A stretch of 47,947 bases of DNA from an uncultured Bacilli bacterium (GTDB lineage: Bacteria > Bacillota_I > Bacilli_A > RF39 > UBA660). This document shows, one piece after another, positions 9,960 to 36,518 of the stretch. The notes under the pieces were generated by a model. The model saw only the letters and a program-made list of their open reading frames with translations. It was not told where the DNA came from and made no database searches. Made by a program: the position numbers and the translations under genes. The stretch is from positions 1 through 47,947 of the forward strand of contig CAKOJO010000002.1 in NCBI GenBank assembly GCA_934090595.1, given 5' to 3'. The first letter of the stretch is position 1; every line of letters starts with the position of its first letter.

Positions 9960-10709
9960 ATGAAGTTAAAAAATAAAACAATTCTAATAACCGGAGCATC
10001 TCGTGGTATTGGTTATCAAACAGCATACGAAGTAGCAAAAGAAGGTGCAAATGTAATAATAAACTATAATAATAGTATTAAACAAGCAAAAAAATTAGAA
10101 CAACAATTAAAAAAAGAATTTGGTACAAAAACTCTTCTTGTAAAAGCAGACATCAAAAATGAACAAGAAATAATTGAAATGGTAAATGAATCAATAAACC
10201 ATTTTAAAAAAATAGATGTACTAATAAATAATGCTGGAATGTGTAAAGATACAACATTCGAAGACAAAACAAAAGAAAACTTTATGGAAATATTAGAAAC
10301 CAATCTTGTAGGAACCTTCCTAGTATCAAAACATGTATCACATCACATGTTAAAAGAAAAATCAGGTAAAATAATAAACATTGCATCAACAAACGCAACA
10401 TATAGTTACTATCCAGAAAGTCTAGACTATGATGCATCAAAAGCAGGTGTCATCTCACTAACGCACAATCTAGCACTACACTTAAGTCCGTATATAACAG
10501 TAAATGCCGTGTCACCTGGATGGACCAAAACCGACATGAATAAAGAATTATCAAAAGAACAAATTAAAAAAGAAGAAGAAAAAATACTATTAAATAGATT
10601 TGCACAACCACAAGAAATAGCTAAAGTAATTGCATTTCTATCATCTGATGATGCAAACTATATAAATAATCAAATAATAAATGTCGATGGAGGAGAAAAA
10701 TATGAATAA
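9960..10709 (+). CDS. SDR-family oxidoreductase (FabG-like 3-oxoacyl reductase)
   Basis: TGASRGIG cofactor motif, NNAG, catalytic YxxxK (YDASK). Confidence 0.88.
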   Translation: MKLKNKTILITGASRGIGYQTAYEVAKEGANVIINYNNSIKQAKKLEQQLKKEFGTKTLLVKADIKNEQEIIEMVNESINHFKKIDVLINNAGMCKDTTFEDKTKENFMEILETNLVGTFLVSKHVSHHMLKEKSGKIINIASTNATYSYYPESLDYDASKAGVISLTHNLALHLSPYITVNAVSPGWTKTDMNKELSKEQIKKEEEKILLNRFAQPQEIAKVIAFLSSDDANYINNQIINVDGGEKYE

Positions 10710-11949
10710 TGAACTAAATATAAAAGAAAAAACTATAAACCTATTAAATGAAGCAGAACAACAAGTACAAGAACAATTCAAAAACCAAGAAGAAATATGC
10801 CTTTATAACAGTATTAAAGTACTAAATGCATTTAAAAAACATAACATATCAGAAATACATTTTAATCAAACAACAGGATACGGTTACAATGACTTAGGAA
10901 GAGACAAAATAGAACAAGTATACAGTGAAATATTTAAATCAGAAGATTCCTTAGTAAGAAACCAATTCATATCAGGAACACATGCCCTATCAACAACACT
11001 ATTTGCACTACTAAGACCAAATGACACATTACTATCAGTAACAGGTTTACCATATGACACGTTACACGAAGTAATAGGAATAAAAGAAAACAAAAGTAGT
11101 CTTAAATCATATGGTATAAACTATGAACAAATTGATTTAGTAGATAATGATTTCAACTATGAACTAATAAAAGAAACACTAAAAAATAAAAAAATAAAAG
11201 TAGTAGAAATACAAAGATCAAAAGGATACTCAACTAGAAAAAGTATTACACTAGATAAATTAGAAAAAGTAATAAAAACAATAAGAGAAATAGATAAAAG
11301 TGTTATTATTATGGTAGATAATTGTTACTGCGAATTCGTTAACAAAAAAGAACCAATTGAACTTGGCGCAGACATAACCGTAGGCTCACTAATCAAAAAT
11401 TTAGGAGCAGGAATAACTACAAATGGTGCTTACGTAACAGGAAGAAAAGACCTAATAGAACTAGTCGCAGAAAGATTAAATGTTCCAGGACAAGCAAAAG
11501 AAGTTGGACCAACACAAAACTCAAACAAAGCAATACTACAAGGATTATACATGGCTCCAAACGTAGTAAAAAATAGTATCAAAACAGCAATACTAACATC
11601 AAAAGCATTAGAAAATCTAGGATACGAAACAGAACCAAAATATAATGAACAACGAGCAGACATTGTTCAAAATATAATATTTAGAAACAGTGAAAAAGTA
11701 ATAAAATACACCCAAGGTATTCAAATGGGATCAGCAATAGACTCAAACGCTATTCCAACACCATGGGATATGCCAGGATACGATGATCAAATAATAATGG
11801 CATCAGGTTCATTCGTCCAAGGATCATCAATCGAAATATCATGCGATGCTCCAATAAGAGAACCATACATTGCCTATCAACAAGGAGGCCTAACATACGA
11901 ATACGGAAAAATCGCCGTAGCAAAAGCAATAGATAACATAGAACAATAA
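10702..11949 (+). CDS. methionine gamma-lyase family PLP protein (YnbB / aluminium-resistance family)
   Basis: TGYGYNDLGRDKIEQVY...SGTHAL is typical of PF06838. ATG 10702 follows GGAGGAG and overlaps the SDR stop by 8 nt; the ORF extends to 10681. Confidence 0.8.
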   Translation: MNNELNIKEKTINLLNEAEQQVQEQFKNQEEICLYNSIKVLNAFKKHNISEIHFNQTTGYGYNDLGRDKIEQVYSEIFKSEDSLVRNQFISGTHALSTTLFALLRPNDTLLSVTGLPYDTLHEVIGIKENKSSLKSYGINYEQIDLVDNDFNYELIKETLKNKKIKVVEIQRSKGYSTRKSITLDKLEKVIKTIREIDKSVIIMVDNCYCEFVNKKEPIELGADITVGSLIKNLGAGITTNGAYVTGRKDLIELVAERLNVPGQAKEVGPTQNSNKAILQGLYMAPNVVKNSIKTAILTSKALENLGYETEPKYNEQRADIVQNIIFRNSEKVIKYTQGIQMGSAIDSNAIPTPWDMPGYDDQIIMASGSFVQGSSIEISCDAPIREPYIAYQQGGLTYEYGKIAVAKAIDNIEQ

Positions 11950-28694: not shown

Positions 28695-30724
28695 AAAAAT
28701 ATAAATATAATATAAACAATTTAGACTGTGCAAACTGTGCCAGAGAAATAGAAGAGGCACTAAATAAAAATAAAGACTTTAAAAATGCCGTAGTAAACTT
28801 TAATACTAAAAAAATATCATATGAGTCAGAAAAAGAATATGAATTAGAAGAATTAAACGATATAATAAAAAAGATTGAACCAGATGCATTTATATCCGAA
28901 GAAGAAATAAAAATAAAAAAACAATACCATTTATCAATATTAATAATAGCTATCATAATTTTTTTATCAGGATACTTCCTACAACTACCAAAATATTTAA
29001 AAATAGCAATGTACTTAATCTCATATGCTCTATTACTTTATAGAACCACTATAAATGCTATAAAACTACTAATAAAAAGTAGAACAATAAATGAAAATGC
29101 TCTAATTACAATCTCTTCACTAGGAGCTCTTTTAATCGGCGAAGTACTCGAAGGAGCAATGGTAATAACACTATATACTATAGGAAAACTACTTGAAGAA
29201 AAAGCAATAAATAACTCAAGAAAATCAATCAAAGACCTAATTGATATAAAACAACCATATGCCAATAAAAAAGAAAATAATCAAACAATAAGTATTCCAG
29301 TAGAACAAATAAAAATAAATGATGTGCTAGTGGTCAAAAAAGGAGAAAGAATACCAGTAGACTCTATAGTAATCAAAGGAACAACCTTACTAGACACATC
29401 AGCGCTAACCGGAGAATCAGAACTAGTAGAAATAAAAGAACAAGACCAAGTTCTATCAGGAAGCATTAACCAAGGAAAAATAATAGAAATAAAAGCCCAA
29501 AAAACTTTCGAAGACTCAACTGTAGCAAAAATACTAGAACTATTAGAAAGTGCAACCGATAAAAAAACAAAAACAGAAACAACAATATCAAAAATAAGTA
29601 AAATATACACTCCAACAGTAATAGTCTTAGCATTACTAGTAGTATTCCTATTACCACTATTTCAAATACCATTCAAAGACTCAATATATCGTGGACTAAC
29701 ATTCCTAGTAATATCATGCCCATGTGCTATTGCAATATCAGTACCACTATCATACTTTACAGGAATCGGAGTATCAAGTAAAAATGGTATCTTAGTAAAA
29801 GGAAGTAATTACCTAGACAATCTATCAAATGCCAAAAATATTATATTTGATAAAACAGGAACACTAACAAACGGAACATTCGAAGTAACAGAAATAAAAG
29901 TATTAGATAAAAACTATACAAAAGAACAAATAATAGACATTCTAGTAAAAGGAGAATCTCTATCAAACCATCCAATTGCAACCTCTATAATTAAACTAAA
30001 AAAAGGAAAAATAGACAATAAAGACGTCAAAAACTTCCAAGAAATCGAAGGAAAAGGAATAACATTTGAACTTGATAATAAAAAAATAGCAATAGGAAAC
30101 AGTAAACTATGTAACTGTGAAGAAGAAGCAACACTTCATTTAAATATAGAAAATAAACATATAGCCTCAATTACAATAAACGATGGAATAAAACAAGGAG
30201 CAAAACAAACAATAGATAACTTAAAAAGACTAAATATAAAAACATACATGTTTACCGGAGATAAAAAACAAATAGCGCTAGAAATAGGTAAAAAACTAGA
30301 CATAGATGAAATTAAATATGAAATGCTTCCAACAGATAAGTTTGAAAACTATGAAAAAGTAGCAAAAGAACAAGAAATAACTATATTTGTCGGAGACGGT
30401 ATAAACGATGCTCCAGTACTAAAACGAGCAGACATTGGTATATCAATGGGTAACGTTGGAACAGATTCAGCAATCGAAGCAAGCGATATAGTCCTTATGA
30501 GAGATGACTTAGAAAAAATACCATTAGCAATAAATATATCAAAATACACAAAACACATAATAAAACAAAACTTAATATTTGCAATCACAGTAAAACTATT
30601 AATACTACTACTAAGTATATTTGGACTAGCAAACATGTGGTTCGCAGTATTCGCAGACACTGGAGTAACATTATTAACTATTATAAACACTCTAAGAATC
30701 ATTAAAAAATATCAAAAAAATTAA
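28691..30724 (+). CDS. cadA: heavy-metal P1B-type ATPase, Cd/Zn class
   Basis: HMA domain with CANC, TM6 CPC, DKTGTLT, GDGINDAP and the TM8 ADTG motif typical of Zn/Cd pumps. Confidence 0.92.
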   Translation: MKKYKYNINNLDCANCAREIEEALNKNKDFKNAVVNFNTKKISYESEKEYELEELNDIIKKIEPDAFISEEEIKIKKQYHLSILIIAIIIFLSGYFLQLPKYLKIAMYLISYALLLYRTTINAIKLLIKSRTINENALITISSLGALLIGEVLEGAMVITLYTIGKLLEEKAINNSRKSIKDLIDIKQPYANKKENNQTISIPVEQIKINDVLVVKKGERIPVDSIVIKGTTLLDTSALTGESELVEIKEQDQVLSGSINQGKIIEIKAQKTFEDSTVAKILELLESATDKKTKTETTISKISKIYTPTVIVLALLVVFLLPLFQIPFKDSIYRGLTFLVISCPCAIAISVPLSYFTGIGVSSKNGILVKGSNYLDNLSNAKNIIFDKTGTLTNGTFEVTEIKVLDKNYTKEQIIDILVKGESLSNHPIATSIIKLKKGKIDNKDVKNFQEIEGKGITFELDNKKIAIGNSKLCNCEEEATLHLNIENKHIASITINDGIKQGAKQTIDNLKRLNIKTYMFTGDKKQIALEIGKKLDIDEIKYEMLPTDKFENYEKVAKEQEITIFVGDGINDAPVLKRADIGISMGNVGTDSAIEASDIVLMRDDLEKIPLAINISKYTKHIIKQNLIFAITVKLLILLLSIFGLANMWFAVFADTGVTLLTIINTLRIIKKYQKN

Positions 30725-30809
30725 AAGTCCTATGAAAAACGTGTAAAAAAGAACAAAAAGTCCTATGAAAAACGTGTAAAAAAGAACAGAAAGTCCTATG
30801 AAAAACGTG
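30725..30809 (+). repeat. 33-bp tandem direct repeat, about 2.6 copies
   Basis: The unit AAAGTCCTATGAAAAACGTGTAAAAAAGAACA(A/G) recurs with the G of AGTCC at 30727, 30760 and 30793. It starts right after the cadA stop and ends just before a TTGTAA-17-TATTAT promoter-like element for the next gene. Confidence 0.9.
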
Positions 30810-30860
30810 AAAATTGTTGTAAAATAAGTAAAAATATGCTATTATTAATATGGTGATACA

Positions 30861-32177
30861 ATGAAAAGAAAAATTTATAATGAATTACTTAATTGGAAAA
30901 ACAATGAAATTAATAAAAAGCCATTAATGGTGTTAGGGGTAAGACAATCAGGAAAAACATACATAATAAATGAATTCTGCAAAAATGAATTTTTAAACTA
31001 CATATATGTAAACTTATTTGAACAAAAAAACATTATCGAACTATATAATACTGACTTAACATCAGATGAAAAATATAATAGGTTAAAACTATTATTAGAC
31101 TTTGATATTGATAAAGAAAACACAATTTTATTTATTGATGAAATACAAGAATCAGAACAATTAATTTCAGAATTAAAATACTTTTGTGAAAAGCATAATA
31201 ACATCAGAATAATATGCGCTGGCTCACTATTAGGAGTAAAACTTAAAAGATCAAAAAACTCATTTCCAGTAGGAAAAATAAAAATGCTTACATTATATCC
31301 AATGGATTTTGAAGAATTCTTAATAGCAATGAACCAAGAACTATTAATAGAATGTATCGAAGACTGTTATAAAAACAATAAACAGATATCTGAACCAGTC
31401 CATCAAAAAGCATTAGAACTATACAGACTATATCTAGTAACCGGAGGAATGCCTGAAAGTATAAAAAATATGCAAGAGGTTAATAAAGACTATATAAAAT
31501 ACGATAAAAGCATCTTAAAAGATATATTAACTTCATATTTCAATGATATGAACAAATATGTTTCAAATGAATCAGAAGCCCTAAGAATTAATAGACTATA
31601 CAATTCATTACCATCTCAACTTTCAAATAATTCTATGAAGTTTCAATATTCAGCAATTTCATCTGATGCAAGAGCAAGAGAATATCAAACACCACTAGAC
31701 TGGTTAGAAGCATCAAATATGGTCTTAAGATGTAAATGCGTAAAAACACCTCAAATCCCACTCGAAGGATTTGTAGATGAAGAAACATTTAAACTATATT
31801 TAAGTGATGTAGGTATTCTAAATAATATATTAAAAATAAATATACAAGACATATTATCAGACAATATATCCTTATATAAAGGAATAATCGCAGAAAACTA
31901 TGTTGCAAACCAATTAGTGTGCAATGGACATGACCTATATTATTGGAAAAATAATAACACTTCAGAAATTGACTTCTTACTATATACAAAAGATGGAGTT
32001 ATTCCAGTCGAAGTAAAAGCAAACAATAACACTCAATCAAAAAGTTTAAAGATATATAATGAAAAATATAAACCAGTTTATTCAATAAGAATAAGTACTA
32101 AGGAATTTGGATACAATCCTACAACAAAAATAAAATCTGTTCCATTATACGCAACATTCGTGATAAAAAATGATTAA
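30861..32177 (+). CDS. AAA_14/DUF4143-type ATPase, function uncharacterised
   Basis: Walker A GVRQSGKT, Walker B ILFIDEIQ, and C-terminal DUF4143-like region (EIDFLLY...IPVEVK). Confidence 0.85.
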   Translation: MKRKIYNELLNWKNNEINKKPLMVLGVRQSGKTYIINEFCKNEFLNYIYVNLFEQKNIIELYNTDLTSDEKYNRLKLLLDFDIDKENTILFIDEIQESEQLISELKYFCEKHNNIRIICAGSLLGVKLKRSKNSFPVGKIKMLTLYPMDFEEFLIAMNQELLIECIEDCYKNNKQISEPVHQKALELYRLYLVTGGMPESIKNMQEVNKDYIKYDKSILKDILTSYFNDMNKYVSNESEALRINRLYNSLPSQLSNNSMKFQYSAISSDARAREYQTPLDWLEASNMVLRCKCVKTPQIPLEGFVDEETFKLYLSDVGILNNILKINIQDILSDNISLYKGIIAENYVANQLVCNGHDLYYWKNNNTSEIDFLLYTKDGVIPVEVKANNNTQSKSLKIYNEKYKPVYSIRISTKEFGYNPTTKIKSVPLYATFVIKND

Positions 32178-32191
32178 GTAAGACAAAAATA

Positions 32192-32260
32192 CAAAGTTTA
32201 CAATAAAATGACAAGTATAAATGTCAATAATTGTAAACTTTTGTCATATATGGTAAAATA
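32192..32260 (+). promoter_or_regulatory. nested inverted repeat overlapping the putative promoter of the HEPN gene
   Basis: ACAAAGTTTACAAT (32192-32205) pairs with ATTGTAAACTTTTGT (32231-32245, one bulge). Inner repeat TGACA...TGTCA. TTGTAA (32232-32237), 17 nt, TAAAAT (32255-32260), then RBS AGAGGTGA. Confidence 0.5.
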
Positions 32261-32277
32261 TAAAAGAGGTGAGATAA

Positions 32278-33960
32278 ATGCCAGATATAGACTTTATTGC
32301 AAACTACTATCTAGGAACTAAAGCATACACAATATTTATGCTTAAAACTCTATACGATGTGGACGAAAAAAACTACATAGAAAATCAAGACTATCAATTA
32401 GCGGCACAAGTAGGATTCATTGCCAATATCATGCTATCAATAAAAGAAGAATTAGTAGAAAACACCGGAAACCTAATATATGAATCAAAACTATATGAAA
32501 AAAGATTAGAAGAAACAGTAGAAAACATATCAACAAAAACAAATGATGGTTACGAAATAGATAACTATACATTTAAAGATGCCCCAACATTAGTAGCGAT
32601 CCTAAGAAACAAATTAGGTCATGGAGACTTTACAATAGATTACAAAACAGGCAAAGTTGTTTTACACGTTGAAGGTCAAGAAGTGTCAATAAGTGTCGAT
32701 AAACTGACAACATTTATGATCAATGCAAACTATAACTTCTTTATGGATACTAAAACAAATGAGTATAAAAGAAACTTTATAATGTTTACAAAACTAGAAA
32801 AAAATAGAACAAAACTAATCACCACTGAAGAAGAAGTAGCAAGCATAATAAGACAATGTGAAAACATAGAGTTCTCTCTTAAAAGACAAGACGGTAAAGA
32901 ATTAGAACCCTATGAAATAAACTCTTTCAATGAAATAGTGGAAATCATAAAGAAAAGAGAATGTGACTTTGAACTAATAAAATATTACAAAGAACTATTA
33001 AAAAATAAAAATTACATAATGAAAGTAGAATACACTAAATTAAATAAATATAAAGACATAAATGAACTACTTCCACTAATTAAAAACTCAATACTATCTC
33101 AAACAGAGTATGACTACAAAAACCAAGTGCTAGCAATAGTAAAAGAAACCCAAAGAAAAGTTGATGAAAACTATAACATAACAGATGTAAGAATGGCAAA
33201 TATTAACAACCTAATAATGCTAAGAACCATGAAAAACATAAGAAGTACTGATATAAACGCTCTAAAAAGAAACATAGCAAATAATTATAAATACCCAATG
33301 TATTTTAACTATGATAACTTAGCAACCGCAGTAATAAGTAACTTTAATAGCCTTTTTTCAGTCCCATACGATAAACTATACAAAAAAACACTCGAAGAAC
33401 AAGGACTAGACTTTTCTAAACTAAACTTAAATGCTTTAAACATCATCCATTTAGAAGTCGAAGAGGATAGACTAAAACCTAAAAAAGACAAAGAAACATC
33501 ATTAGAAAAAGAAGTAACAAAAATAGAAGACTCACTCGAAGAAATAAAAAACAACTTAGCTAAAGTGCCAAAGGCAAACACAAAAGCAATCACAGCAATA
33601 AATAACAATATAACAAATAAAAATAATTATCTAAATCAAAAGAAACAAGAATTACAAAGTCTAAAACAAGAACTGAAAAAACTACAAAACTATTATCAAG
33701 ACGATGAACTATATATGAAAAATAGAACTATAATCGCTGGTATAAGAAACTCAATAGCGCACGGTACCTATGAAATAGTTCCGGGACCAACTATCGAAGA
33801 TGCAAAACTTATATTTACAAATATCTATGAAGGAAAACTTGTTTTAAAAGTAGAAATAACAGTAATAAGATTCCTAGAAATGATGGATAACAATTTATTA
33901 ACAATACAACAATATCTAAATGATGAAGAAACTAAACAAACTAATCAAAAGGTGATATAA
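32278..33960 (+). CDS. orphan protein with two HEPN RNase motifs (RNxxxH twice) and a central coiled-coil-like region
   Basis: LRNKLGHG (R110-H115, nt 32605-32622) and IRNSIAHG (R490-H495, nt 33745-33762). Helical-looking sequence with a K/E/N/Q-rich stretch at aa ~395-475. Strong RBS. The stop abuts the next ATG (TAAATG). Confidence 0.7.
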   Translation: MPDIDFIANYYLGTKAYTIFMLKTLYDVDEKNYIENQDYQLAAQVGFIANIMLSIKEELVENTGNLIYESKLYEKRLEETVENISTKTNDGYEIDNYTFKDAPTLVAILRNKLGHGDFTIDYKTGKVVLHVEGQEVSISVDKLTTFMINANYNFFMDTKTNEYKRNFIMFTKLEKNRTKLITTEEEVASIIRQCENIEFSLKRQDGKELEPYEINSFNEIVEIIKKRECDFELIKYYKELLKNKNYIMKVEYTKLNKYKDINELLPLIKNSILSQTEYDYKNQVLAIVKETQRKVDENYNITDVRMANINNLIMLRTMKNIRSTDINALKRNIANNYKYPMYFNYDNLATAVISNFNSLFSVPYDKLYKKTLEEQGLDFSKLNLNALNIIHLEVEEDRLKPKKDKETSLEKEVTKIEDSLEEIKNNLAKVPKANTKAITAINNNITNKNNYLNQKKQELQSLKQELKKLQNYYQDDELYMKNRTIIAGIRNSIAHGTYEIVPGPTIEDAKLIFTNIYEGKLVLKVEITVIRFLEMMDNNLLTIQQYLNDEETKQTNQKVI

Positions 33961-36216
33961 ATGAAAAAAGTAGAACTACTTTCCCCCGCAGGAAATAAAG
34001 AAACATTATACTATGCGGTCCATGGTGGATGCGATGCTGTATATGTATCAACAACATCATATACTGCTAGAAAATATGCACAAAACTTCACACTTGAAGA
34101 ACTAAAAGAAGCAGTAAAATATTGCCATCTATATGGAGTAAAACTATATGTTACAGTAAACACAATCATCTATGAACAGGAAGTAAAAGACTTTATTAAA
34201 TACATAAAATATCTATACGAAAGTAACGTAGATGCTCTAATAATGCAAGACTTAGGAATGATAAAACTAGTAAATGAACTATTCCCAGACTTTGAAATCC
34301 ATGCATCAACTCAGTTTCATACTCACAACGAAGAACAAGTAAAATTATTAGAAAGTCTAAACGTAAAAAGAGTAGTACTAGCAAGAGAACTATCACTACA
34401 AGAAATAAATAATATTAAAACCCCATTAGAAAAAGAAATCTTCATTCATGGAGCACTATGTGTATCATACTCAGGACAATGTTACTTCTCATCCAAATTT
34501 CTACAAAGAAGTGGAAACCGTGGAGAATGTGCAGGTATGTGTAGACTACCATACGAACTATATGAAAAAAATAATAAAATAAAAACAGATGGACAATTTC
34601 TTCTAAGTCCTAAAGAACTATGCACAATAGAAAGCCTAAAAGACATTCTAGATAGTAACATAGCATCACTTAAAATCGAAGGAAGAATGAAAAAAGAAGA
34701 ATACACATACTACGTAACCAAAATATATAAAAAACTAATAGAAAAATACTATAACCATGAAGACATGACTCTTGAAGAATCAGATTTAAAAACATTAGAA
34801 CTTCTATACAATAGAAATTTTACTAAAGGATACTTAAACAATAATAAAAATAACGAATTTATAAACATAAAATCTCCTAAACATCAAGGAATAGTATTAG
34901 GCAAAGTATTAGAAACAACAAAAGATAAAATAAAAATAAAACTACAAGAAGAACTAAATCAAAATGATGGAATAAGATTCAGCAATAACGAAGGAATGAT
35001 TGCCAACTTTATATACAATGAAAAAGATATGTTGATAAATCATGCTAATAAAAATCAAGTCATATACCTAGACAATAAAGTAAAACTAAAAGAAAAAGGT
35101 ATAGTGTTAAAAACTCAAGACGATAAACTAATAAAAGATTTAAAAAACATCAAAGAAAAAAAGATAGATATAAACTATAAAGTAATAGCAAAAATAAATA
35201 AACCATTACAAGTAACAATAACAGATGGTACAAACACTATAACAAAAACAACATCAACAGTAGAACAATCTAAAAACACCCCAACCTTAACACAAGACTT
35301 ATCAGAAAAATTATCTAAGATTGGTGGAACACCATTCCAAGTTAAAGAAATAGAATATGATGTTGATAAAGATATCTTCATACCTTTAAAATATATAAAT
35401 GAAATAAGAAGATATCTAACCGATGAATTAATAAAAGAAAGAACTAAATCAAAAAGAAAAGAAAAAATACATCAAGAAAAACTAACTATAAAAGAAATAG
35501 AAAACACAAATAGTATAAGTTTTCTAGTAAGAAATGAAGCTCAATTAAAAACGTTATTAACAGAAAATGTTAATATCTATATTGAAGATGAAGCTTTGTA
35601 TAATAAATATAGAAAAGAAAATAAAAATATATATTTGAAAACACCAAGAGTAAATCCAAATCCTAAAAAATATCAAAATGAAAATATTCTAGCATCAGAA
35701 ACAGGAACAATTTATCAAAATAAAGAAAATAATAATATAGTAAGTGACATATACTTAAATGTTGTAAACAGTAAAACTATAAATACTTTAGAAAACTTAA
35801 ATGTTAAAAGAGTAGGACTATCAGTGGAACTAAATGAAAATGATTTAAATTACTTATTAAAAGGATATAAAGAAAAATACAAAAGAAACCCTAATTTAGA
35901 AATACTAGTATATGGAAAACTAGAACTAATGATCATGAAATATTGCCCATTAAATGCACTAATTAATGACGGTAAAAAACCATGTAATTTGTGCAAAAGT
36001 TCTAATGAATATAGTCTAAAAGATAGAAATGGTAAAAAACTAAGATTAATAAATAATAATTGCATTACTAAATTAATGGATTATCAAGAAGTAAATTACA
36101 TTGATAAGGTTCCAAAATTAAAAGAATTAGGAATAACAAACTTTAGAGTAGATTTACTAGATGAAGAACCAAATGAAGTAAAACAAATCTTAACAAGTAT
36201 AATAAAATTATTCTAA
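33961..36216 (+). CDS. U32-family peptidase (long form)
   Basis: ELLSPAGN, DAVYV, EIHASTQ and CxxxC-type cysteines (GECAGMCR) typical of U32. 751 aa. Confidence 0.88.
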   Translation: MKKVELLSPAGNKETLYYAVHGGCDAVYVSTTSYTARKYAQNFTLEELKEAVKYCHLYGVKLYVTVNTIIYEQEVKDFIKYIKYLYESNVDALIMQDLGMIKLVNELFPDFEIHASTQFHTHNEEQVKLLESLNVKRVVLARELSLQEINNIKTPLEKEIFIHGALCVSYSGQCYFSSKFLQRSGNRGECAGMCRLPYELYEKNNKIKTDGQFLLSPKELCTIESLKDILDSNIASLKIEGRMKKEEYTYYVTKIYKKLIEKYYNHEDMTLEESDLKTLELLYNRNFTKGYLNNNKNNEFINIKSPKHQGIVLGKVLETTKDKIKIKLQEELNQNDGIRFSNNEGMIANFIYNEKDMLINHANKNQVIYLDNKVKLKEKGIVLKTQDDKLIKDLKNIKEKKIDINYKVIAKINKPLQVTITDGTNTITKTTSTVEQSKNTPTLTQDLSEKLSKIGGTPFQVKEIEYDVDKDIFIPLKYINEIRRYLTDELIKERTKSKRKEKIHQEKLTIKEIENTNSISFLVRNEAQLKTLLTENVNIYIEDEALYNKYRKENKNIYLKTPRVNPNPKKYQNENILASETGTIYQNKENNNIVSDIYLNVVNSKTINTLENLNVKRVGLSVELNENDLNYLLKGYKEKYKRNPNLEILVYGKLELMIMKYCPLNALINDGKKPCNLCKSSNEYSLKDRNGKKLRLINNNCITKLMDYQEVNYIDKVPKLKELGITNFRVDLLDEEPNEVKQILTSIIKLF

Positions 36217-36424: not shown

Positions 36425-36518
36425 GACAAATTGAACAGAAATGTTTTATATGTTGTCATTTGGTCGGAGACGACTTATATTTATTAGAGATAGTCAATTG
36501 ACTATCTCTTTATTTTTT
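36425..36518 (+). ncRNA. candidate small RNA (orphan promoter-to-terminator unit)
   Basis: TTGATT (36390-36395), 17 nt, TATAAT (36413-36418). 5' hairpin ATGACAA/TTGTCAT. Perfect terminator AGAGATAGTCAATTGACTATCTCT (36486-36509) plus TTTATTTTTT. No RBS-preceded ORF. Confidence 0.45.

Follow-up and report, generated by a model that had tools for sequence, protein, structure and literature searches.

The 47,947-nucleotide (nt) stretch of DNA analysed here (the window; positions 1–47,947 of contig CAKOJO010000002.1, assembly GCA_934090595.1, from an uncultured Bacilli bacterium of the RF39 lineage) carries a gene for a 560-amino-acid (aa) protein with two RNxxxH motifs, which we call the two-motif protein. 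It belongs to a real and conserved family, so far undescribed, that is restricted to one lineage of uncultured gut Bacilli. Sequence comparisons and a predicted structure point to a single chain with two HEPN-type ribonuclease (RNase) units, most like the small pEK499_p136 proteins, and by analogy with characterized systems its likeliest role would be that of an ApeA/DARNA-like RNase that a trigger activates under stress or against phages, a reading to which we assign a probability of about 0.5. The family fits best into the HEPN superfamily as a new architectural variant; we do not class it as a relative of Cas13.

Two conserved RNxxxH motifs in a family from gut Bacilli

The open reading frame (ORF) starts with ATG behind a ribosome-binding site (AAGAGGTGA, 32264–32272), and its two motifs, RNKLGHG and RNSIAHG, lie 380 residues apart (Table 1), exactly where a first-pass annotation made from the sequence alone had placed them. 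At this amino-acid composition 0.012 RNxxxH motifs would be expected by chance, with a probability of ~7e-5 for two or more, and two of the four histidines in the whole protein sit inside the motifs.

The same annotation had called the protein an orphan, a description that database searches overturned. A word-indexed search returned 347 relatives in identity tiers of 92–100%, 55%, 43% and 31–36%, all ~555–573 aa long, and a family profile run exhaustively with HMMER against 1.84 billion cluster representatives found 367 clusters (50% identity) at E ≤ 1e-3 and 289 at E ≤ 1e-10, nearly all of them 540–600 aa long and matching the profile end to end. Scanning of one genome per species revealed homologues at 74 loci, usually as a single copy per genome. 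The hosts are almost all metagenome-assembled genomes (MAGs) from human and animal guts, labelled as uncultured Bacilli, 'Tenericutes', Mycoplasma sp. CAG or Clostridium sp. CAG, and the only name for a family protein in any source was 'hypothetical protein'. Two longer distant relatives (L087:266–2383, 705 aa; L089:3854–6085, 743 aa; L numbers denote related loci) keep both Rx4H motifs and carry extra sequence, and may reveal modular parts of the architecture.

Judged from the alignments, both motifs are under very strong purifying selection. They are invariant in 23 aligned sequences, down to 31% identity, and among 123 representatives with 17–42% identity to the query (mean column identity 22%) both are intact in 116, five lacking the N-terminal motif only and two lacking both histidines. 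The arginine and histidine of each motif, which the first-pass annotation had proposed as catalytic, are thus kept in nearly every homologue (Table 1), and near-invariance of these residues across a family of ~20% identity is the conservation pattern of an active site. Nearly invariant in the same 123 sequences are K56, E57, R110, H115, G116, N482, I489, R490, N491, I493, H495, G496 and F513. Helix 2 of HEPN domains carries a conserved acidic residue (PMC3710099), for which the K56–E57 pair is a candidate.

Predicted structure of the two units

AlphaFold2 modelling from a 23-sequence alignment gave a confident model with a single body (predicted local distance difference test (pLDDT) 85.4, predicted template modelling score (pTM) 0.81). 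The protein had been described as helical-looking, and long helices are indeed present, but the model also has 12 or more beta strands, with an insert of three strands straight after each motif. In both units the motif forms the C-terminal end of a helix and is followed by the beta insert and a further helix (pLDDT 85 in the full model, 79 in a model of the N-terminal unit alone), and two long helices come before the motif helix (2–26 and 37–54 in the N-terminal unit, 399–429 and 435–475 in the C-terminal unit). The Rx4–6H site of HEPN domains is found where core helix 3 ends and the loop to helix 4 begins, an insert after the motif has a precedent in Csx1 (PMC3710099), and ApeA has inserts between HEPN helices 3 and 4. 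Helix order and motif placement in both predicted units fit this helix-3/helix-4 position.

Helices 1–2 of the N-terminal unit reached pLDDT values of 79–94 in the full chain versus 58–68 when the unit was modelled separately (pLDDT 78.6 for the unit), suggesting that they pack against the rest of the protein. The K/E/N/Q-rich, coiled-coil-like stretch recognized in the first-pass annotation was borne out as a long predicted helical hairpin that matched coiled coils only; it runs directly into the motif 2 helix and may replace helices 1–2 of the second HEPN-like unit. The middle region (residues 159–398) is proposed to be a regulatory, sensor or substrate-binding module.

Profile comparisons and the limits of the HEPN assignment

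To place the units among named families we compared Pfam matches across 77 family members. Apart from spurious matches to FlgM, the only recurrent ones outside coiled coils were to two HEPN families, PF18736 ('HEPN pEK499 p136'; 6 of the 77 members, best E 7.9e-6) and PF18737 (MAE_28990-like HEPN; 2 of 77). All localized matches to these families fall in the C-terminal unit and stay under the gathering score, PF18736 giving 17–18 bits against a cut-off of 26.6. Matches to FlgM in 11 members, short, over the motif region and far under threshold, were rejected as spurious.

We then built a pEK499_p136 profile from the founder of that family (WP_000528932.1, plasmid pEK499, annotated 'HEPN family nuclease') with 45 homologues aligned. 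With hhalign, the C-terminal unit aligned with this profile over 60 columns, through the beta insert into the next helix (probability 93.9%, E 1.6e-7), and the N-terminal unit aligned with the C-terminal unit over 56 columns (probability 94.4%, E 8.6e-8). The N-terminal unit matched pEK499_p136 weakly (10.9%), with K56–E57 falling opposite K54–E55 of that family, and the middle region showed no similarity to it. Shared features include R[NH]SxAH followed by beta-beta-beta-helix at the same spacing (...xIxV...IDxIxFxD...AxF...ELLPFL vs ...YxI...DxxIxFxDIY...TF...DFxxL) and, in the N-terminal unit, a K–E pair ~55 residues before the motif. Each unit is thus probably related to the other, as well as to the HEPN proteins of the pEK499_p136 type, through a similarity that is motif-driven.

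By these comparisons pEK499_p136 is the closest named family, although the two-motif protein scores below its Pfam threshold, is not significantly similar to it outside the motif and has another architecture. The pEK499_p136 proteins are single-domain proteins of ~160 aa, mostly proteobacterial and plasmid- or island-borne, that must dimerise to form a site (PMC3710099), whereas the two-motif family has two units within a 560-aa chain, separated by an insert of ~320 aa, and occurs in gut Bacilli only. On plasmid pEK499 (L090:41727–43013) the founder gene is followed 12 nt on by a gene for a 257-aa hypothetical protein, both genes being surrounded by VapBC modules and a DUF3800 gene. No PADLOC model matches either protein, which indicates that the pEK499_p136 family is itself uncharacterized as a system.

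Several results weigh against the HEPN assignment. The window protein had no HEPN match in Pfam even at E ≤ 1; searches of Pfam, PADLOC and NCBIfam with it returned coiled-coil noise only, and PDB chains searched with the single protein and with the 123-sequence profile gave coiled-coil matches only, with no HEPN protein and no Cas13 among them. Foldseek searches with the full model gave no significant match among PDB structures (best E 0.76; the method performs poorly on small helical bundles that contain inserts) or among the viral models of BFVD (best E 0.18), and the isolated N-terminal unit had none in the PDB either (best E 0.27). In a masking control, deletion of the seven motif residues from both alignments lowered the hhalign scores to 18.9 (E 0.015) and 15.6 (E 0.043), and 20 column-shuffled controls reached 20.3. 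As the masked scores lie inside the shuffled range, the link to a named HEPN family is mostly the motif itself and not independent proof.

These results are what would be expected if the RNxxxHG elements served to bind a ligand or to support the structure of a non-HEPN repeat within a coiled-coil scaffold protein, which the large coiled-coil segment would also suit. We regard such a non-nuclease protein as improbable, since exact Rx4H spacing, a polar N after R and a K–E pair, all kept across ~20% identity, form a catalytic-site pattern, the motif stands at a HEPN-typical helix end, the only recurrent Pfam matches outside coiled coils, FlgM set aside, are to two different HEPN families, and the flanks align with pEK499_p136 in the same register once the motif has been removed. 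The first-pass annotation's reading of the two segments as HEPN domains accordingly holds in part: the motif lies at the HEPN-typical helix end and there are sub-threshold matches to PF18736 and PF18737, but Foldseek gave no significant match and the profile link is driven by the motif. Because the masked profile scores are at control level and no Foldseek neighbour was found, HEPN identity is probable, not proven; on the sequence and model evidence taken together we consider it likely that both are true HEPN RNase units.

Comparison with Cas13 and other double-HEPN proteins

The two motifs had been taken as a Cas13-like layout. The likeness to Cas13, compact Cas13an included, is a trivial one: a single polypeptide has an Rx4H HEPN-type motif towards either end, and its size is comparable to that of the smallest Cas13 forms in PMC12165695. 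The family differs from Cas13 in having no array, no listed cas family, no CRISPR RNA candidate and no detectable sequence or fold similarity. As the first-pass annotation had observed, no CRISPR-like repeat–spacer array occurs in the window, and none was found in 89 related loci; likewise, no cas family was present among the listed PADLOC and Pfam families (the best 25 per library) of the other 40 window proteins. Searches of PDB sequences with phmmer and hmmsearch, and of PDB structures with Foldseek, found no similarity to Cas13, and an Rfam scan of the window at gathering thresholds found only a tRNA, with no Rfam family near the two-motif gene.

Two HEPN domains in one chain, put forward as the hallmark of Cas13, are known elsewhere: Swt1 has a HEPN dyad (PMC3710099) and CnuE of type III-A CoCoNuTs has two HEPN domains (PMC11090510). 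Swt1, which also lies outside CRISPR, is eukaryotic and is fused to a PIN domain. CnuE works in McrBC-type operons and has a shortened RxH motif in its second HEPN domain; CoCoNuTs also pair HEPN domains with extensive coiled coils. The two-motif family differs from both in having two full RNxxxHG motifs, no McrBC neighbours and no detectable similarity.

The HEPN domains of Cas13 have been proposed to come from AbiD/F (PMC12165695), and the C-terminal unit shares with AbiD/F (Abi_2, PF07751) a near-identical LRNSIAH signature (hhalign E 1.6e-5). The AbiD/F proteins have a single HEPN domain and ~320 aa, and Abi_2 was not among the listed Pfam families for members of the two-motif family. By extent of alignment the closest named HEPN family is pEK499_p136, not AbiD/F: the specific tie to the AbiD/F lineage, which would connect the family with the HEPN proteins behind Cas13, spans 18 motif columns only.

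The gene is preceded by a conserved hairpin (Table 1) with a predicted RNA folding energy of −15.5 kcal/mol (z −4.0). Its version in L020, a species with a 55%-identical protein, folds at −20.3 kcal/mol (z −7.5) with an inner stem that is different yet complementary. The hairpin was seen only before close orthologues, not near distant family members, and overlaps the −35 element of the promoter, as would suit an operator or a terminator that serves the upstream gene.

An RNA-guided double-HEPN nuclease, Cas13-like or pre-Cas13, with an unrecognised guide or regulatory RNA, could draw on the two motifs per chain, the LRNSIAH signature and this hairpin. It is largely refuted, and we hold it to be very improbable: sequence and fold similarity to Cas13 are absent, as are an array in the window or the 89 loci and an Rfam family nearby, the AbiD/F similarity covers 18 columns around the motif, and the hairpin is confined to the closest orthologues and overlaps the −35 element. 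At best, the relation to Cas13 would be an independent fusion or duplication of HEPN units.

Genomic setting of the two-motif gene

The rest of the window is ordinary chromosome, with genes for tyrosyl-tRNA synthetase, AddAB-like helicases, a phosphoketolase and a metal ATPase. The two-motif gene has a heavy-metal ATPase operon on one side and a U32/DUF3656 gene on the other, and the same slot is occupied in relatives with 92–96% identity and in the 55%-identity species (L020). A promoter-like element before the gene is conserved in L016–L020, including the species with only 55% protein identity, and by its sequence appears to be the gene's own, sigma-70-like and constitutive-looking. The first terminator-like site after the ORF lies at 36486–36509, and in this lineage the two-motif and U32 genes are probably co-transcribed. 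The U32 gene adjoins a homologue only in the window, L016–L020 and L001–L003 and is not a conserved partner.

Table 1 Features of the two-motif gene and its surroundings (positions in the window; counts out of 123 representatives)
Feature	Position	Strand	Description and basis
ORF of the two-motif protein, 560 aa	32278–33960	+	ORF list, translation, full-length homologues of 540–600 aa, AlphaFold model
N-terminal HEPN-like unit, residues 1–158	32278–32751	+	Helices 2–26 and 37–54, insert, helix 102–114 (ends in motif), three strands, helix 140–156
K56–E57, near-invariant pair	32443–32448	+	End of second helix; K 116/123, E 116/123 plus D in 6
Motif 1, RNKLGHG (R110..H115, G116)	32605–32625	+	RNKLGH, residues 110–115, at 32605–32622, G next; R 119/123 (K in the other 4), H 120/123, G 116/123
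Middle region, residues 159–398	32752–33471	+	Alpha/beta segment, then helical segment; no family match in Pfam, PADLOC or NCBIfam
K/E/N/Q-rich helical hairpin, residues 399–475	33472–33702	+	Long predicted helices 399–429 and 435–475; coiled-coil matches only (Pfam, PDB sequences)
C-terminal HEPN-like unit core, residues 477–558	33706–33951	+	Helix 477–494 (ends in motif), three strands, helices 529–558
Motif 2, RNSIAHG (R490..H495, G496)	33745–33765	+	RNSIAH, residues 490–495, at 33745–33762, G next; R 122/123, N 113/123, H 121/123, G 117/123
Conserved hairpin (inverted repeat)	32193–32241	+	12-bp arms AAAGTTTACAAT / ATTGTAAACTTT plus inner stem; overlaps −35 element
Promoter-like element	32231–32259	+	TTGTAA-17-TAAAAT, TG extended −10; consensus scan; 19 nt before start codon; conserved L016–L020
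AAA_14/DUF4143 ATPase (PADLOC candidate PDC-S01)	30861–32177	+	Pfam, PADLOC; neighbour, not partner
Peptidase U32/DUF3656 gene	33961–36216	+	Pfam; ATG abuts ORF stop (TAAATG junction)

Control by a partner ATPase had been suggested, and a gene for an AAA_14/DUF4143 ATPase does lie just upstream. Only the window and L019 have it beside the two-motif gene, L020 lacks it, and in L016–L018, relatives with 92–96% identity, only the last ~75 nt of its ORF are left there. This 3′ remnant indicates that the ATPase gene was deleted there, and because the closest relatives keep the two-motif gene after that loss, the ATPase is not a partner. A 33-nt tandem repeat (AAAAGTCCTATGAAAAACGTGTAA core; window 30714–30812), present in three copies in the window and L018 and in one in L016 and L017, forms the left boundary of the deletion. 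The 48-kb window holds two such ATPases, a candidate single-gene system (PDC-S01) in PADLOC, at 30861–32177 and probably at 10681–11949.

Across the 74 loci there is no common neighbour cluster and no conserved antitoxin or partner gene. The upstream genes vary by sub-lineage and are often translationally coupled (a 245-aa unnamed protein (c7), a phosphodiesterase, DUF1848 plus a helix-turn-helix (HTH) protein after RecG, an orphan D12 methylase), and S41 peptidase, alanine racemase and HrcA are found downstream. Recurrent neighbours are RecG, DUF1848, an HTH protein, S41 peptidase, a metallophosphatase, alanine racemase, HrcA and an amidoligase. One homologue adjoins the S10 ribosomal operon and has a DUF3800 gene and an Abi_2 gene within a few kb; the Abi_2 gene recorded ~5 kb from a family member is in L013. 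Defence islands, proposed as a setting to look for, are not supported as the general one, the recurrent neighbours being mostly housekeeping genes.

A protein of ~220–247 aa without a Pfam or PADLOC match is encoded directly upstream of the homologue in L021, L022, L025, L038, L039, L079 and L010–L012. Its gene overlaps the homologue's start by 8–20 nt in L021, L038, L039 and L079, suggesting translational coupling, and the gap is 31–51 nt elsewhere; the protein could be a lineage-specific partner or regulator. A DUF1848 protein (PADLOC 'RTasDUF1848', a DRT-associated family; E 2.5e-33) is encoded one or two genes upstream, usually after RecG, in L052, L055, L064, L066, L067, L069, L070, L074, L080, L081, L084 and L085, with no reverse transcriptase noted nearby.

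Defence or housekeeping

No gene of its syntenic block evolves faster than the two-motif gene: when the window is compared with L020, its protein is 55% identical, and 13 of 14 syntenic neighbours are 69–93% identical, the fourteenth, a PAP2 protein, being 56% identical. A homologue is fragmented in the complete 1.46-Mb chromosome CP091726.1 (L075), and one MAG contains an intact copy (L023) together with a degraded second one (L078). Tandem paralogues spaced 4–10 nt apart occur in four species (L025:9983–13339, L049:2488–5527, L053:1008–4341 and L056:2301–5634); three of these four pairs have the two Rx4H motifs intact in each copy, so that hetero-oligomers are conceivable. The location of the gene differs between sub-lineages, and its occasional neighbours include a retron reverse transcriptase (RT), an orphan D12 methylase and PDC-S01. 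Rapid divergence, duplication and decay are typical of conflict genes; a stable slot within sub-lineages and housekeeping neighbours are not.

Four observations speak against a defence role. No PADLOC model matched the two-motif protein; a scan of viral contigs (IMG/VR) found no relatives, and a viral origin of the family was dropped on the same result; within sub-lineages the slot is fixed across species, with mostly housekeeping flanks (RecG, alanine racemase, HrcA, a ribosomal operon, U32); and the promoter looks constitutive. The last three would instead suit a double-HEPN nuclease for housekeeping RNA processing or turnover, specific to this lineage of reduced-genome Bacilli and acting constitutively on defined substrates, for example rRNA or tRNA precursors, comparable to Las1 in eukaryotes. 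The U32 family, with whose gene the two-motif gene is probably co-transcribed from a sigma-70-like promoter, includes rRNA and tRNA hydroxylation enzymes. Such a role would also agree with the occurrence of a usually single-copy gene in 74 species-level genomes of one lineage and with the lack of an antitoxin or partner. Against it stand the pace of divergence within the syntenic block, fragmentation in a complete chromosome and, in L078, beside an intact second copy in the same MAG, tandem duplication in four species, the change of location between sub-lineages and the confinement of the U32 adjacency to one small clade; furthermore, the bacterial HEPN proteins in the literature considered here are overwhelmingly toxins or defence effectors. 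We consider the housekeeping role somewhat unlikely, yet a serious rival, and favour a defence-type role over it with modest confidence.

The nearest functional models for a defence-type role are ApeA and DARNA (PD-T7-3), single-gene HEPN defence systems that stay latent until they meet a ligand and then cut tRNA anticodon loops. Like the two-motif gene they are single genes, of ~450–580 aa, and they join a HEPN RNase to non-catalytic sensor domains, need no antitoxin and are latent. They have one HEPN domain each and build their sites through homodimers and higher-order oligomers, whereas the two-motif family has two units. Neither is a relative: the architectures differ, and their PADLOC models give no match to the window protein. 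The role proposed on their model is the weakest step of our argument. HEPN-MNT and other HEPN toxin–antitoxin pairs differ from the two-motif family, which has no conserved adjacent antitoxin at the 74 loci.

One homologue lies beside a retron RT. In L007:6742–9683 a full-length RT (PADLOC RT_Ec107-like, E 1.4e-124) is encoded 74 nt upstream of a 35%-identical homologue, and L033, from the same species, has the same arrangement (99% identical). An a1/a2-type inverted repeat (AAAGAGCA...TGCTCTTT, ~150 nt apart) lies within the 209 nt before the RT gene, as expected for msr–msd. The RT gene ends in a terminator-like hairpin, the adjacent homologue has its own extended −10 promoter, and Rfam found no msr in the retron locus (L007/L033). 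No associated effector has been reported for the Ec107 retron clade (Mestre et al. 2020). We rejected the two-motif protein as a retron effector, given that the RT adjoins a homologue in one species only, the transcription signals are separate and Rfam recognized no msr. The HEPN effector of type IX retrons, a small dimerising protein without the canonical histidine (PMC7736814), was rejected as a relative as well, its architecture being different and similarity absent.

Proposed mechanism and implications

In the trigger-activated RNase that we favour, the two units would dock onto one another intramolecularly, in the manner of HEPN dimers and Cas13 (PMC12165695), so that R110/H115 and R490/H495 would form one composite, metal-independent RNase site, which the ~320 residues between the units may hold closed or supply with selected substrates. 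With no antitoxin, the protein must itself keep any RNase activity in check, whether through autoinhibition that would be released by a trigger or through narrow substrate specificity, for instance for tRNA or rRNA loops.

An extended version of this scheme, in which duplication or fusion of a pEK499_p136-like protein and insertion of a sensor gave rise to an independently evolved, CRISPR-free, single-chain double-HEPN immune sensor-effector, perhaps also recruited beside an Ec107-type retron in one gut species, strikes us as unlikely; if true, such an origin would parallel the gene-fusion step proposed for Cas13.

The two-motif family is not a categorically new system, and its interest is moderate. 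If its motifs form one intramolecular site, it would be a natural compact HEPN fusion outside CRISPR, of ~560 aa, with no partner and no guide RNA, and an independent case of a dimer-dependent toxin domain becoming a single-chain, self-regulated enzyme, the step proposed at the root of Cas13 (PMC12165695). An unnamed family would thereby gain a testable function, and a defence or RNA-metabolism component would be added to the RF39-like gut Bacilli, which are abundant and uncultured and whose immune repertoire is poorly known. Were the role a housekeeping one, the protein would stand out among bacterial HEPN RNases by acting constitutively.

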